A stretch of DNA of 64,000 bases from Patescibacteria group bacterium (GTDB lineage: Bacteria > Patescibacteriota > JAQUNI01). Of this stretch, positions 3,624 through 40,611 are shown piece after piece. The position numbers and the translations under genes were made by a program. Every line of letters begins with the position of its first letter. Position 1 is the stretch's first letter. The stretch covers positions 335,451-399,450 of the forward strand of contig JAQUNI010000001.1 in the NCBI GenBank assembly GCA_028717685.1. Direction: 5' to 3'. The notes beneath the pieces were generated by a model. That model was not told the origin of the DNA, searched no databases, and saw only the letters and a list, made by a program, of their open reading frames with translations.

Positions 3624-5018
3624 TTATTCCGCCCAAAATGGGCTATTTACAATATAGCTTCTTACTTCCGGCGATAATTGGTTAAAGTTCTGACGGATAA
3701 TTTGCCGCAATCGCCCTTCTTCAACAGGATCTCCTTTTTGCGCCGCGGCTTCTAAAATAGAAATCGTAATTTCTGAATTTGAGGTATCCACTAACTTTTC
3801 GCTCTGAACAAAATTTTTGTTCAGCAATGGAGAGGAAAATCCATCCCCCTTTTGGAAAGGAGAGTTGGGGGCGGGAGTAACACTCCCCCTGCCCGAGGGG
3901 GAGATGGAGGGGGTGGGAGGTTCCGGCATTCTCTGTGATAATAAATCCGTAGGCTCATTTGGAACAGATGTTTGAGACGGCAATGGCTCTTCTCTTCCGG
4001 CAAATGCCGCGGGTCTTTTAATCTCCTCTGTTGTGGGCGGAGCAAATGACGCGGGCTGCTTTGAAACGGCTCCGGCGGTATAGGGAGAAGAGGCGGCACT
4101 CCCTCTGTCTTGAGGGGGGAGAAAGACACTCCCCCTGCTCGCCTCGCTAAAGCTCCGGCGTAGCGGGCCCGAGGGGGAGGCGGAGGGGGAGGGAGTCTCC
4201 GCGGCTAAAGGCGCCCTGTTTTGCGCTTGGGGAAATCTCGTTTCTCCGTTCGCGGGTCGAATATCCCGTAAATCCTGCGGACCTTGATAACCTTGAGGCG
4301 GTCGGTTCGCTCCTTCCGACGCAGTTTGAGCCAAGGCTTGACCCAATCTCACCTGCTTTCTTTCTTCTATACTCACTCCCTGTTCTTGCGTCATTTCCAT
4401 CTCCGCCATTACTCCCAAAGGCTGCAACGCATTATAAAGCTTTAAAAGCTTTGCCAAAATTATTTTATCCCCTTCTGCTAGCTTTTGAACCTCTGTGTTC
4501 TTATTTAAAAAATCCCTTTCCTCAAGCTCTAAAAGCTGCGGCCGACCCGGATAGCTGTGGATAAAGAGGGCGAGCCACTCGCCAATCGTTAAAGAACCTA
4601 TTTTTTGTCTGTTATCGCGCAAGGCTTGCACCAATTTTTTACAAAGCTCTTCCCGTGGTCCAGTCGGGTTGACCCAAAGTAAAGCTTCCAAACGACCCAA
4701 TACAATCTCCTCATCCAAAGGCAAAACCTCTTTAATCTCGCCTTGAAACAATTGAATAATCTCACTGTCCCTCTGCGCCGGCAAACTGACATAATTAACT
4801 AGAGTCGCCCATTTTTTTAGTTGACCTAAAATTTCCGGCTTCGCGCTAAGCTCTCTTCTTTGTAGGACTTCTTTAAACTCTCTGGACAATTTAAAAGCTT
4901 CCTTATCTTCGCAAAAATAAATAATTTCCCCGACCTGCCGGTTCACTTCCTGCAAAACCTCTGGCCGCGTTATCTCTTCTGAATTAAGAGTGTTTAAATC
5001 TCGCATAGATATTATCAT
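3624..5018 (-). CDS. Hypothetical protein (464 aa). Paralog of 1612..3063, with two in-frame GC-repeat insertions.
   Basis: Long ORF. The segments PSPSASPSGPLRRSFSEASRGSVFLPP and PTPSISPSGRGSVTPAP are encoded by GC hairpin repeats at about 4095-4200 and 3880-3925. Confidence 0.6.
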   Translation of the reverse strand: MIISMRDLNTLNSEEITRPEVLQEVNRQVGEIIYFCEDKEAFKLSREFKEVLQRRELSAKPEILGQLKKWATLVNYVSLPAQRDSEIIQLFQGEIKEVLPLDEEIVLGRLEALLWVNPTGPREELCKKLVQALRDNRQKIGSLTIGEWLALFIHSYPGRPQLLELEERDFLNKNTEVQKLAEGDKIILAKLLKLYNALQPLGVMAEMEMTQEQGVSIEERKQVRLGQALAQTASEGANRPPQGYQGPQDLRDIRPANGETRFPQAQNRAPLAAETPSPSASPSGPLRRSFSEASRGSVFLPPQDRGSAASSPYTAGAVSKQPASFAPPTTEEIKRPAAFAGREEPLPSQTSVPNEPTDLLSQRMPEPPTPSISPSGRGSVTPAPNSPFQKGDGFSSPLLNKNFVQSEKLVDTSNSEITISILEAAAQKGDPVEEGRLRQIIRQNFNQLSPEVRSYIVNSPFWAE

Positions 5019-25282: not shown

Positions 25283-25355
25283 AGGCCTAGGTGGGATTTG
25301 CACCCACGAATCACGGTTTTGCAGACCGTTGCGTTAACTACTTCGCCACTAGGCC
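25283..25355 (-). tRNA. tRNA-Cys(GCA).
   Basis: GGCCTAG acceptor stem, anticodon stem-loop ACGGT-CTGCAAA-ACCGT, T-arm GTGGGTGCAAATCCCAC. Confidence 0.8.
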
Positions 25356-25598
25356 ATATTCAACTTTCAGCAAATCCTTCTGTTGGTGAGTTTTATAGAA
25401 TTTCTCCATTTCCATTGCCTCACTACGGGTCGGAAATTCCTTATAAACTAACAACCGCCACGGACAATATGCTTTAGTTGATTTTACCTTAACGCTGTTA
25501 TGTCGTTTAAATCTAACTTTCACATTTTCCGTACTGCCTACATACAAATTATTATTTTTTAGGCTAAGTAAAAAATATACATAATACATAGAAATCAC
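25338..25598 (-). CDS. Small stand-alone GIY-YIG nuclease family protein (YhbQ/UPF0213-like), 86 aa.
   Basis: YVYFLLS...NNLYVGSTENVKVRFKRHN...YKEF.TRSEAMEMEKFYK. The last six codons and the stop overlap the 5' 18 nt of tRNA-Cys. Confidence 0.65.
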   Translation of the reverse strand: MISMYYVYFLLSLKNNNLYVGSTENVKVRFKRHNSVKVKSTKAYCPWRLLVYKEFPTRSEAMEMEKFYKTHQQKDLLKVEYGLVAK

Positions 25599-27133: not shown

Positions 27134-27441
27134 TGGGCTTCAATTAATGAATTAATTCCCGCCTTTAGCCGTAAAAAAGGCCTAGTAAAGCGAGATTTTA
27201 GCTAATCTTAGGCAATCCCAAGGAACCGATCCCCTAAGCGCCTAATTTCGCTAAAATAAGGTTAAATCATCCTGAATTTCTAGTTGTTTTAACTAATATA
27301 AGCCAAAACAAAAAAATCCTTGACAGATTTAAGAAAGTATTGTAGCATATCTTTTCTTAAAAGTCAAGGATCTATAACAAAAAACAGCTTCTCGATAAAG
27401 AAAGCTGTTTTCTGTTTTTTGGATATGAGCAAAAATTTTTG

Positions 27442-27513
27442 AGCGGGTGAGCGGAATTGAACCGCCTTCTCATCCTTGGCAAGGATGTATAATAACCGTT
27501 ATACGACACCCGC
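27442..27513 (-). tRNA. tRNA-Gly(GCC).
   Basis: GCGGGTG/CACCCGC acceptor stem, anticodon stem-loop CATCC-TTGCCAA-GGATG, T-loop TTCAATT. Confidence 0.8.
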
Positions 27514-27534: not shown

Positions 27535-27783
27535 TCAGCGTAAACTAAACTCTTTTATTAAATTTTCTTTTTTCTCTCTCCTCCAACCTTTGATTTCTTT
27601 TTCTCTACTATGTGCTTGCTGGCGAATTCCAAAACTTTCCACATAAACCAATTTGACTGGTAATTTGTTTTTTGTGAATGGAGTCAATCCGAGATTGTGT
27701 TCTTTTATCCTTTTCGCTAAATTCCAAGTGATGCCAGTATACAAACAATCATCTTGGCAACGTAAAATATAAACAAAATACAT
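27535..27783 (-). CDS. Small stand-alone GIY-YIG nuclease family protein (YhbQ-like), 82 aa.
   Basis: YFVYILRC.DDCLYTGITWNLAKRIKEHN...LVYVESF....AHSREKEIKGWRREKK. Confidence 0.65.
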   Translation of the reverse strand: MYFVYILRCQDDCLYTGITWNLAKRIKEHNLGLTPFTKNKLPVKLVYVESFGIRQQAHSREKEIKGWRREKKENLIKEFSLR

Positions 27784-27842
27784 AAAATCAAACTAAGTAC
27801 AACAAAAAAAGTTTACACCGAGTAAACCTAAGGTTTACGAGG

Positions 27843-28163
27843 TGCCGAGGGGCAGAATCGGACTGCCGACACGATGATTTTCCATATTTTCTCTTGAATT
27901 TCTTCAAGGATTGGACTATATCTTCTGCCTCTTTTTAATCAAAAAGAGGAGCTGGGCGCTATTTGCAGGATTATTGTCGGGGCTCACCTGCTAGTCTCTA
28001 CACCTTCTCCTTAAAATTATCCCCTTAAGGAGCTTGGCTCGGGATTACCATATCCTTTTTTACGAGATTTAGGCTCCCCCGAATTCACCCAGTTTTCAAT
28101 CCCGAATTACTTCGGGTTGGACCGAAAATTCAGTCATCTGCTCTACCACTGAGCTACCTCGGC
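27843..28163 (-). tRNA. tRNA-Phe(GAA) interrupted in the anticodon loop by a roughly 245 nt group I intron.
   Basis: 5' exon GCCGAGGTAGCTCAGTGGTAGAGCAGATGACTGAA (28163 down to about 28129). 3' exon AAAATCATCGTGTCGGCAGTCCGATTCTGCCCCTCGGCACC (about 27881 down to 27841). The exons match tRNA-Phe (variable region CGTGTC, acceptor stem pairing). Confidence 0.7.
27882..28128 (-). ncRNA. Group I intron within tRNA-Phe; no ORF.
   Basis: The group I core S element AAGATATAGTCC (27912-27927 on plus) and the R-like GAGACTA (27988-28005 on plus) are both present. Size is similar to cyanobacterial tRNA-Leu introns. The P3-P7 core contains UAUGGUAAU...GCCAAG. Confidence 0.6.
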
Positions 28164-28300
28164 AAGTTGGTAATCAGTAATCGGTAATTCGTAATTAGGG
28201 TAAACCCAGCACTGTCCGCCTTTAGCGGACTGGTGCGTGGGTAAACTCGCCCTTTGGGCGAGAAATTCCTGATTACTAGTTACTGATTACCGATTACTAA
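28164..28300. repeat. Long inverted repeat (TAATCAGTAATCGGTAATTCGTAATTAGGG ... CCTGATTACTAGTTACTGATTACCGATTACTAATTAC) flanking a GC hairpin.
   Basis: The arms are reverse complements of each other. The same family occurs at 40430-40545, flanking ATCGGCCGAAGGCCGAT. Confidence 0.7.
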
Positions 28301-28414
28301 TTACTATTTTCTAACCCATTGACATAAACATAATATCCTAAACTACCCAGGTTGTAAACCCCGCACCGAATCTTTTTCTAATAAAAAACAGGGCTGATTA
28401 GCATAAAATCCAAT

Positions 28415-36326: not shown

Positions 36327-36395
36327 AATCTAGATCGTTGACTCAACAGTACGCCTCGGACGGAACTATGGAGCCAACAAAGATTTTTCTAACAT

Positions 36396-36469
36396 GGTGG
36401 ACCGAGTGGGAATTGAACCCACGACCTCCTCATTGCAAATGAGGCGTTCTACCACTGAACTACCGGCCC
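36396..36469 (-). tRNA. tRNA-Ala(UGC), with CCA encoded.
   Basis: G3:U70 acceptor pair, anticodon stem-loop CCTCA-TTTGCAA-TGAGG, T-arm GTGGGTTCAATTCCCAC, 3' ACCA. Confidence 0.85.
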
Positions 36470-36572: not shown

Positions 36573-37544
36573 GTTTCAATTTAAAATTAAAAATGAAAAA
36601 TTAAAAATTCAAACTTTATTATTCTTGTCATTAAACGAAGTATACTTTTAAGGACAAATTAATCTTTATGGAGATTGCTTCGTCGTCCGCTTTAGGGCGT
36701 CCTCCTCGCAATGACGAATACAATAAAATAACAATGCAATAATGAAGCAATGAAACAATAAAAATTATTTCATTAAAAATTGAATAAAAAATTAAAAATT
36801 AAGAATTAAAAATTCTTTATACTATTATACAAAAAAAGACCCTTAAAAACAAGGTTCTTTTTTTATCCGCAAAGGAGTTTTCCTTTGGCAATTAAACAGT
36901 GATAGGAAACATCTTAAGATTTAAAACACATTTTGTTTAAAACGCCGTGTTTTAAGCTGGCCACTACCGTGTGGCTTTTTGGCGTTTGTTTGATAACAGT
37001 ATCCCTCGCGGGATACCGCGACAATATTTTTCTCCCTAGAAAGGAGGTGATCCATCGACAGCTTCCGCTACCGATGCCTTGTTACGACTTCGTCCTAATT
37101 ACCGATCCTACCGTGGATCCACCAAAAGGCGGAACTTCGGGTATTACCGGCTCTTCTGACGTGACGGGCGGTGAGTACAAGACCTGGGAACGTATTCACC
37201 GCGACATGGCTGATTCGCGGTTACTAGCGATTCCGGCTTCATGAGGTCGAGTTGCAGACCTCAATCCGAACTGGGGGTGCTTTTGATGGGATTAGCTATA
37301 GCGTTACCGCGTCGCGTCCCATTGTTACACCCATTGTAGCACGTGTGTCGCCCAGGGCATCAAAGGCCATGCTGACTTGACGTCGTCCCCACCTTCCTCC
37401 GACTATATGCCGGCAGTCTCGCGTGACAATAGTAACACGCGACAGGGGTTGCGTTCATTCCCGGACTTAACCGAACATCTCACGACATGAACTGACGACA
37501 GCCATGCAGCACCTGATCCCAAGGTTCCCCCCACAAGAGATCCA

Positions 37545-37712
37545 AATTCCAAACACTAAGCACCAAATTACAAACAATATCCAATAATCAAAGTTCCAAT
37601 GACCAAAACAGATTTGGAATTTTGAAAATTGAAATTTAGAATTTATTTGTCTGGCTATGCCAGATCTCGCTAGAAGCGAGAAAATTTGTGATTTGCGATT
37701 TGGGATTTCTAT
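37545..37712 (-). other. Insertion/expansion in the 16S V6 region (about 170 nt, AT-rich with internal palindromes).
   Basis: Lies between the conserved AACCTTACC and GGTGCTGCATGG. Contains the ATCTCGCTAGAAGCGAGAT and TCTGGCTATGCCAGA palindromes. Confidence 0.65.
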
Positions 37713-37791
37713 CTTGAATCCCTTATGGGGGCACATCTTAGTTTCCTAAGATCTCCTTGAGCGTCTTGCCCTGGTAAGGTTCCTCGCTTAC

Positions 37792-37825
<34 letters not shown>

Positions 37826-37837
37826 AGGTCCCCGTCT

Positions 37838-37869
<32 letters not shown>

Positions 37870-38291
37870 TCCCAGGCGGGACACTTAACGCGTTAGCTTA
37901 CGACACTGAAGGGGTCGAGCCTCCAATGCCTAGTGTCCATCGTTTACAGCGTGGACTACTGGGATATCTAACCCCATTCGCTCCCCACGCTTTCGTCCTA
38001 TGAGCGTCAGAATCGTTCTAGTAAGCTGCCTTCGCTATTGGTGTTCCTGCCGATATTAACGCATATCACTACTACACCGGCAGTTCCGCTTACTTCTCCC
38101 GACCTCTAGTCTTGAAAGTATCCGACCCTTTCCCTTGGTTAAGCCAAGGTCTTTAAGGTTAGACTTTTCAGACCGCCTAGGGACGCTTTACGCCCAATAA
38201 ATCCGGATAACGCTTGGACCACTCGAATTACCGCGACTGCTGGCACGAGTTTAGTCGGTCCTTATTCGTAGGGTACACTCAACCGCACCTC

Positions 38292-38458
38292 GCTGGGCTC
38301 GGTGGCGGTAATTCCTAATTTCTAATTTTTAATTTCTAATCAAATCCCAATGACCAAATGACCAATGACCAAACTTTAGACATTAGACATTTAGACATTA
38401 GAAATTGATTAGAAATTAGGTCAATTAGGAATTAGAAATTCCGAACCGAACGCAGTGA
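38292..38458 (-). other. IVS-like insertion in the 16S V3 region, with conserved GC-clamp termini.
   Basis: Lies between GGGGAACAAACCGTACCTCACTGCGTTCGG and CCGAGCCCAGCGAGGTGCGGTTGAGTG. AT-rich hairpin core. Confidence 0.65.
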
Positions 38459-38845
38459 GGTACGGTTTGTTCCCCTATAAAAGCAGTTTACACTGAAGAA
38501 CAGCTTCTTCCTGCACGCGGCGTCGCTCCTTCACCCTATTTCGGGCATTGAGGAAGATTCTCGACTGCAGCCTCCCGTAGGAGTCAGGGCAGTGTTTCAG
38601 TCCCCGTGTGCGAGGGCATCCTCTTAGACCTCGTAACCGTCATAGCCTTGGTGAGCCTTTACCCCACCAACTAGCTGATAGTCCGCAGGCCCTTCCTGAA
38701 GCGATAAATCATTTACCATAACTAATGAATAGCTATGGCACATCGGGAATTAGTCCGCCTTTCGGCGAATTATGCCCGTCTTCAGGGTAGGTTACCAACG
38801 TGTTACTCACCCGTTTGCCACTGGCCGCACCTCGCTACGCTCGGG

Positions 38846-38998
38846 CGGAATTTACCAATTTTCAATTTTCAATTTTCAATCAATTTTCAATTTTCAAACA
38901 TTACCGCAACTTAATCTGTTTGAAAATTAAATCATTAATTTATTTGATATTGATTGAAAAATTCGAAAATTTGTAAATTGAAAATTCCGTGCCAAACA
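38846..38998 (-). other. IVS-like insertion in the 16S V1 region with termini similar to the V3 insertion.
   Basis: 5' end GCCTCACTGTGTTTGGCACGGAATTT and 3' end AATTCCGCCCGAGCGTAGCGAGGTGCGG, compared with ACCTCACTGCGTTCGGTTCGGAATTT / AATTACCGCCACCGAGCCCAGCGAGGTGCGG in V3. Confidence 0.65.
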
Positions 38999-39197
38999 CA
39001 GTGAGGCACGGCCCGTTGACTTGCATGCCTTATCCACGCCGCCAGCGTTCATCCTGAGCTAGGATCAAACTCTCAAAAAAGATAATCAGCAATTAACTCA
39101 TAAAAGCTAGATCACTGATTATATAAATAGACGTTCCTATCACTATTTAATTGTCAAGGTTCAAAAATATTTTTGCTCTTGAACTAGAGCATAATTT

Positions 39198-40422: not shown

Positions 40423-40611
40423 TGTGTTAGTAATCGGTAATCAGTAATTAGTAATTAGGGAAGATTTTATCGGCCGAAGGCCGATTTGTTTTAGTTACCA
40501 ATTACCAGTTACTAATTACTGATTACTAGTTAATATATCCATTAAACCAAAAACCGCTTGTTTTAGCAAGCGGTCTCTAGCGTATCGAAAGCTTGAATTA
40601 AAAGCTTATCT

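Follow-up and report, generated by a model that had tools for sequence, protein, structure and literature searches.

The tRNA-Phe(GAA) gene at positions 28163 to 27843 on the minus strand of the window (the whole 64,000-nt stretch of DNA analysed here) is split by a structurally intact group I intron. The identity proposed for this element in the original prediction is confirmed by a full-length match to the Rfam group I model RF00028 and by an intron-mode call of the host tRNA with ARAGORN. Judged from its sequence and predicted fold, the element is very probably a self-splicing group I intron that lacks an ORF and has an IC3-like core, lodged between U33 and G34 of tRNA-Phe(GAA) in a Doudnabacteria-like member of the Patescibacteria.

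The interrupted gene and its splice sites

Run over the whole window in its default mode, ARAGORN missed the interrupted tRNA-Phe and found no other tRNA-Phe gene either. Intron mode recovered tRNA-Phe(gaa) with a 249-nt intron; the spliced form is a standard 74-nt cloverleaf with anticodon GAA and A73, and the two halves pair perfectly in the acceptor and anticodon stems. The span of 27843 to 28163 originally assigned to the feature proved to be exactly that of the tRNA gene, the sole tRNA-Phe gene seen in the 64-kb window, and its halves are indeed separated, by a measured 249 nt and not by the predicted 245 or so. The gene and its immediate surroundings comprise the following features.

28330-28358 (-): sigma-70-like promoter match, TTTACA-17-TATTAT, about 165 nt upstream of the tRNA; a consensus match that is no commoner than in shuffles
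28132-28163 (-): 5' exon of tRNA-Phe, 32 nt, positions 1-33, up to U33; from ARAGORN intron mode, the spliced cloverleaf and sequence
27883-28131 (-): group I intron, 249 nt, starting GAAUUUUCGGUC and ending AUAUG, with omega-G at 27883; from Rfam, the spliced tRNA and 23 homologues
27843-27882 (-): 3' exon of tRNA-Phe, from G34, A35 and A36 to A73; from sequence and ARAGORN intron mode
27535-27783 (-): stand-alone GIY-YIG nuclease-domain ORF of 82 aa, outside the intron; Pfam PF01541, E = 1.9e-16

Reading from 28163, the 5' exon (GCCGAGG-UA-GCUC-AGUGGUA-GAGC-A-GAUGA-CU) contains the acceptor and D-arm sequences, the 5' strand of the anticodon stem, C32 and U33. The 3' exon, read from 27882 (GAAAA-UCAUC-GUGUC-GGCAG-UCCGAUU-CUGCC-CCUCGGC-A), continues with the anticodon GAA, A37, A38, the 3' strand of the stem, the variable loop, the T arm, the acceptor strand and A73. 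Once joined, the exons read ...GAUGACU/GAAAAUCAUC... across the junction, giving the anticodon loop CUGAAAA. Two peculiarities of the gene itself may be recorded. The end of the tRNA reads ACCT (27840-27843, -), that is, A73, CC and then T; the 3' CCA is incompletely encoded and would therefore need completion after transcription. The T loop (27856-27862, -) is UCCGAUU, with C at position 55, which is nearly universally U (pseudouridine 55) in tRNA T loops; the same variant occurs in 4 of 23 homologues (L155, L170, L173 and L175). The leader of the gene also carries one of two copies of a palindromic element (28170-28311), in which 29-nt arms of GTAATNN heptad repeats flank small GC hairpins; the other copy lies at 40430-40533, upstream of a trmD-like ORF. 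Matches to the heptad pattern number 14 against 0.15 expected, and the leader with the first copy has a fold z of -7.7. The element may be a MITE/REP-like repeat.

GAA begins both the intron and the 3' exon, and four possible junctions give an identical spliced product. We place the junction at 33/34, with the 5' exon ending at U33 (28132), because this is the sole option that combines a preceding U with an intron-terminal G, and this fixes the insertion position within the anticodon loop; subtracting intron position i from 28132 gives the window coordinate. The Rfam alignment likewise sets U33 in the conserved splice-site U of P1, opposite G 28123. The covariance-model match extends from 28141 to 27892, spans model positions 1-253 of 253, and scores 88.4 bits against a gathering score of 50 (38 bits above it; E = 3.2e-21), far more than chance would give. 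The motifs by which the element had first been recognized were all recovered on the minus strand, namely AAGATATAGTCC at 27923..27912, GAGACTA at 27998..27992, TATGGTAAT at 28052..28044 and GCCAAG at 28038..28033. An ORF scan found no frame of at least 60 aa overlapping the intron. There is thus no ORF here for an intron-encoded homing endonuclease, and all 23 homologues (205-291 nt) are too short for one.

Fold, covariation and proposed splicing

We aligned 24 precursors, those of the window and of 23 full-length homologues, and specified the structure for pair counting, with the P7 pseudoknot included, for a total of 78 pairs. The elements of the fold are listed from the 5' to the 3' end of the intron.

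28120-28135 (-): P1 hairpin, exon GACU and intron GA(A) with guide (U)UCGGUC; Rfam alignment, invariant in 24/24
28097-28119 (-): P2 hairpin with GUAA tetraloop; 7/7 pairs with compensatory changes
28086-28092 (-): P3 5' strand, CUGGGUG, pairing with 27958..27952; two outer pairs covary in 11/24
28039-28082 (-): P4-P5 domain, where P4 is UCGGGG (28082..28077) with UCCCGA (28044..28039)
28048-28073 (-): P5, CCUAAA...UAUGG; from sequence
28002-28038 (-): P6 with GGGG loop, GCC..AAGCUCCUUAA / UUAAGGAG..GGU; 6 pairs with compensatory changes
27992-27996 (-): P7 5' strand, GACUA, preceded by GGUGUAGA (J6/7) and pairing with UAGUC (27918..27914); invariant in 24/24
27965-27991 (-): extra P7.1-like hairpin between P7 and the 3' strand of P3, stem GCAGG/CCUGC, conserved loop UGAGCCCCGACAAUAAU; an insertion relative to Rfam, 4/5 stem pairs covary
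27952-27958 (-): P3 3' strand, CGCCCAG; alignment pair count
27925-27951 (-): P8 hairpin; 4/5 counted pairs covary
27914-27924 (-): J8/7 and P7 3' strand, GAAGAUAUAGUC, the 'S element' of the original prediction; Rfam, sequence and alignment
27893-27908 (-): P9 hairpin with GAAA tetraloop; 6/6 pairs covary in the 16 sequences that have P9

In this alignment, standard pairs occupy 97.6% of the cells, compensatory changes are seen at 41 of the 78 pairs, and covariation scores 0.409. Shuffled alignments gave 83.7% paired, 26.6 pairs and a score of 0.137, with the observed values reached by 0 of 500, and controls in which the structure was slid by 1-3 columns fell to 32-50% paired. P1, P2, P3, P4, P6, P8 and the extra hairpin are also predicted independently by RNAalifold. 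The splice-site U·G pair (U33 at 28132 with G at 28123), omega-G, P7 and the J8/7 sequence are invariant in all 24 sequences; P1 and P7 therefore neither support nor contradict the fold model, since they never vary, P7 being always pairable. The maintenance of helices by compensatory changes across 24 genomes requires that the fold be under selection. Two pairs of P4 are compensated in three sequences each, and P9 is missing altogether from 8 homologues (the Berkelbacteria-labelled ones, most of those labelled Saccharibacteria and one unclassified Patescibacteria locus).

Some details of the fold deserve comment. The loop of P1 is very small: with the innermost two predicted pairs in place, just 2 nt would be left in it, and these two pairs are unlikely to form. 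The GGG of the P6 loop could pair with a CCC in the loop of the extra hairpin, and the only two sequences with GAG (L176 and L177) also have CUC; this is suggestive of a loop-loop contact, at the level of one or two events. The idea that the extra hairpin is unique to the tRNA-Phe intron family was rejected, as its motif GGUGAGUCCCAACGAUAA also occurs in non-tRNA group I introns on viral contigs (L021 and L038).

Splicing, as we infer it from this fold, would take the usual two-step route initiated by guanosine and would start from a precursor transcribed with the intron included. P1 would form between the guide UUCGGUC and exon GACU plus the first bases of the intron, setting U33 in the U·G wobble, and an external guanosine bound in P7 would attack the bond between U33 and G1 of the intron. 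The segment UUUUC of the guide (28128..28124) is complementary to GAAAA of the 3' exon, a potential P10 read from sequence, and would then hold the anticodon together with A37 and A38. Omega-G (27883) would enter the G site and the freed 3'-OH of U33 would join G34, restoring the loop CUGAAAA. As the whole anticodon lies in the 3' exon, the intron can in effect read the anticodon through a putative P10. Splicing is presumably needed for tRNA-Phe, because no other tRNA-Phe gene is present in the 64-kb window.

Two other readings of the gene bear on this proposal. The intron could be a decaying relic that no longer splices, in a pseudogene copy of tRNA-Phe whose functional counterpart lies outside the window. 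The survey of tRNA-Phe genes covers 64 kb of the genome, and the C at position 55 of the T loop is unusual, both of which leave some room for such a view; however, that variant is common to four other homologues, all elements of the catalytic core are intact and the Rfam match is full length, and helices are kept by compensatory changes over 24 genomes, with the acceptor and T stems of the exons covarying as well. CPR genomes generally carry a minimal tRNA set, which also counts against a dispensable copy, and we consider the relic very unlikely. The other reading takes the halves for tRNA fragments with no relation to each other, or for a split tRNA that proteins join, and the likeness to group I introns for an incidental one; it draws on the failure of default tRNA detection and on nothing further. 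It is refuted by the Rfam match, 38 bits above threshold for the intervening sequence, by the intron-mode call, and by the perfect pairing and joint covariation of the acceptor and anticodon stems across genomes; nor does the gene need a bulge-helix-bulge motif. We give this reading practically no weight, and retain that of an intact intron that very probably splices.

Distribution and relation to known introns

To place the intron among its relatives, we scanned one genome per GTDB species with a pattern made up of the tRNA-Phe D arm, CUGAA and the guide sequence, in which a pyrimidine after CTGAA and the string TTTCGG were required. A looser pattern (GGTAGAGC N6 CTGAA N0-10 TTCGG) was abandoned, its matches being mostly ordinary tRNA-Phe genes whose anticodon stem reads ..TTCGG. 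The scan returned 38 loci, 13 of them chance matches and 25 of them tRNA-Phe genes interrupted at the same site; 23 of the 25 are complete and have introns 205-291 nt long, each with a terminal G, and the other two are truncated where the locus stops. The genome of the window is absent from the 25 loci, even though the window itself fits the pattern. The introns were found in MAGs that bear the labels Saccharibacteria, Berkelbacteria, Peregrinibacteria, Falkowbacteria, Buchananbacteria, Magasanikbacteria, Doudnabacteria or 'Patescibacteria group', and in a few co-assembly bins under other labels. Four Berkelbacteria-type loci were called tRNA-Ile(gat) by ARAGORN, a call we reject, as acceptor-stem pairing shows them to be tRNA-Phe genes with longer introns.

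A second scan, of metagenomes, used an intron-internal pattern of P7 and the extra hairpin and matched at least 120 loci, a biased sample in that part of the intron is fixed by the pattern. Among the 120 loci listed, ARAGORN resolved 95 interrupted tRNAs, and 77 of these 95 are tRNA-Phe(GAA) genes with the intron at 33/34 and with U before and omega-G at the end of the intron, a proportion to be read with the same pattern bias in mind. About 10 further listed loci resemble tRNA-Phe with mis-set boundaries, and several odd isotype calls are probably the same ARAGORN boundary artefact. A few listed introns lie in tRNA-Asp(GUC) and one in tRNA-Leu(UAA) (L249), the latter also at 33/34. The original prediction held a tRNA-Phe host to be unusual, which stands against the classical list of bacterial tRNA hosts (Leu, fMet, Arg, Ile) but not within Patescibacteria, where this host is frequent in both the 25 species genomes and the resolved metagenome loci. 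On these sequences, the intron belongs to a common, Patescibacteria-wide family that is specialized on the 33/34 site and overwhelmingly on tRNA-Phe. Synteny with the window is seen at one intron-bearing locus, L175 (JBAZQX010000007.1, Ca. Doudnabacteria SO_2017_SWC_9), where neighbouring proteins are 93-97% and flanking DNA about 90% identical, and because of this synteny and these identities we regard the window as coming from a close relative of that MAG.

Among well-studied introns, the IC3 introns of Azoarcus tRNA-Ile and cyanobacterial tRNA-Leu come nearest to the tRNA-Phe intron. Like the Azoarcus intron, the tRNA-Phe intron is a small, ORF-less group I intron in the anticodon loop of a bacterial tRNA. 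The core strings AAUUCGG, CCGAGCCAAGC, GAAGGUGUAGAGACUAG and AUAGUCC appear to be shared between the two, and the same strings are found in IC3-type tRNA introns retrieved by sequence search. Apparently also shared are the receptor-like CCUAA..UAUGG of P5, with CCUAAA...UAUGG here presumably akin to the 11-nt GAAA-tetraloop receptor of Azoarcus, and GNRA tetraloops in L2 and L9. The layout traits compared with IC3 introns were P2, the P5 receptor, the P9 tetraloop and the lack of P2.1 and P5abc, while the hairpin between P7 and the 3' strand of P3 is foreign to the Azoarcus layout. We call the core IC3-like, a tentative assignment made by matching core strings to the retrieved introns and to Azoarcus and cyanobacterial sequences. 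The differences from the Azoarcus intron lie in the host (tRNA-Phe), in the site, which is 33/34 (after U33) and not 36/37 (after the third anticodon base), in the conserved hairpin of about 27 nt added between P7 and P3', and in the length of 249 nt versus about 205 nt. With the cyanobacterial tRNA-Leu intron it shares the anticodon loop, the general core type, a long inheritance and the usual lack of an ORF, whereas that intron is inserted at 34/35, inside the anticodon, and ours at 33/34 in a Patescibacteria host. Loci on viral contigs (L008, L012, L020, L024, L026, L030 and others) were retrieved alongside the IC3-type tRNA introns; if these contigs are truly viral, they conflict with a 2014 review in which phage introns occur in protein-coding genes only.

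CPR tRNAs were already known to carry group I introns. Such introns are remarked on by Lui et al. 2021 (PMC8172020), and are the subject of a preprint by Nakagawa, Amikura, Omae & Suzuki 2025 (bioRxiv 10.1101/2025.07.03.662931, cited in PMC12641178). The intron described here is almost certainly an instance of those surveyed in these works, given the same phylum, element class and type of host gene, and is a good example and not a rarity in the phylum. Reviews of bacterial group I introns (PMC3984707, PMC4090602) treat tRNA hosts in general terms only, and our literature search for tRNA-Phe group I introns turned up nothing specific. Insertions in CPR rRNA, group I introns included, are documented for structural RNA genes (Brown et al. 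2015; Tsurumaki et al. 2024, PMC11270868), and these rRNA introns often encode LAGLIDADG or GIY-YIG endonucleases, whereas the tRNA-Phe intron encodes nothing.

The window holds a 16S rRNA gene of its own (37040-39080, -), which measures 2041 nt against a 1533-nt model. Close to model positions 80 and 455, some 170 and 175 nt are inserted, and there are more insertions elsewhere, none of them reaching the Rfam group I threshold. The gene is followed by tRNA-Ala(UGC) at 36395-36469. No 23S gene was found anywhere in the 64-kb window, and the rRNA genes therefore appear to be unlinked.

The neighbourhood of tRNA-Phe and the inheritance of the intron

The GIY-YIG ORF fills the gap between tRNA-Phe and tRNA-Gly(GCC) (27441..27513). 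In the corresponding slot of L175, the flanks of which are otherwise collinear, a 222-aa HTH protein (4063-4728, -) takes its place. A consistent tie between the GIY-YIG ORF and the intron was rejected, given this absence from the L175 slot and adjacency in just 5 of the 120 listed metagenome loci. A second stand-alone GIY-YIG ORF of 86 aa (25338-25598, -) abuts tRNA-Cys in the window and has an L175 counterpart that is 94% identical.

The HTH protein is one of a family with 782 or more members, all unnamed or called 'HTH domain', with no copy in the window; copies are present at L175, L149, L155, L156, L177, L181, L182, L184, L185-L192 and L313-L317. An N-terminal Tc1/IS630-like HTH is followed by an alpha/beta domain in which the motifs LYWAEG, N.D, H and GW are invariant. 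Sequence-profile searches of Pfam, NCBIfam and PDB recovered only the N-terminal HTH and left the C-terminal domain unmatched; Foldseek comparison of an AlphaFold model (pLDDT 86) with PDB and BFVD gave nothing significant and no nuclease fold; and no LAGLIDADG domain was detected by profile or fold. Intact or decayed copies stand beside the interrupted tRNA-Phe in 14 of the 25 genome loci. Among the 120 listed metagenome loci, 55 have a copy no more than 1.3 kb from the intron (25 of the 52 whose flanks are long enough); the copy may stand on either side and point either way, and the order tRNA-Phe, HTH ORF, tRNA-Gly is frequent. When contexts were sampled from the side of the protein, all 9 adjoined tRNA-Phe, of which 4 were intron-less, 3 had the 33/34 intron and 2 had a different insert, some 470 nt long, in the T arm. 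Because 4 of these 9 tRNA-Phe genes lack an intron, the protein is linked to tRNA-Phe and not specifically to the intron. The T-arm insertion (L189, 1370-1895; L316, from about 884 onward) follows the 5' strand of the T stem. Rfam models of group II intron domains (D1-D4 and domain V) match it collinearly but below threshold (E = 0.002-0.013), and the insertion may represent a group II intron without an ORF, lodged in a bacterial tRNA gene.

These neighbours raise the question of whether the intron is mobile. The introns group roughly by host label and no endonuclease gene is found in any of them, a pattern that fits the mostly vertical inheritance, with losses, that the family appears to have. 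Intron-less tRNA-Phe genes in other Patescibacteria (L185, L191, L314 and L315) fit repeated loss and mobility alike. In the alternative, the Patescibacteria tRNA-Phe locus would be a hot spot for selfish nuclease genes, and the 33/34 intron would have been spread or retained with help in trans from a nuclease gene beside the tRNA ('collaborative homing'), either the GIY-YIG ORF of the window or the 222-aa HTH protein: the free-standing protein would cut an intron-less tRNA-Phe, and the ORF-less intron would protect the site or be copied during repair. Phage free-standing endonucleases reportedly target intron insertion sites. The GIY-YIG ORF directly downstream of tRNA-Phe and those flanking the intron at a few metagenome loci, the frequent proximity of the HTH family, the different cassettes in the slots of the window and L175 despite flanks about 90% identical, and the related introns in tRNA-Asp and tRNA-Leu(UAA) genes would all fit such a history. 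However, the HTH protein has no detectable nuclease domain and accompanies tRNA-Phe whether or not an intron is present, the 82-aa GIY-YIG protein lacks a DNA-binding domain, and the introns cluster by host lineage. We therefore hold collaborative homing to be unlikely, albeit less so than a decayed intron, and prefer largely vertical descent. If collaborative homing were nevertheless true, it would extend to a tRNA gene of a bacterial chromosome a pathway that has until now been proposed from phage genes, and would give a function to an HTH family of at least 782 proteins.

The classical list of bacterial tRNA hosts for group I introns is too narrow. In Patescibacteria the dominant host is tRNA-Phe, in which the intron follows the universally conserved U33. 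Because default tRNA finders miss the interrupted gene, genomes may be scored as being without tRNA-Phe, and inferences on completeness or codon usage can go wrong. The natural variants of this intron, with their covarying extra hairpin and probable loop-loop contact, offer material for studies of ribozyme folding. If the interrupted copy is the sole tRNA-Phe gene of the organism, all phenylalanine decoding in the cell would depend on a ribozyme.
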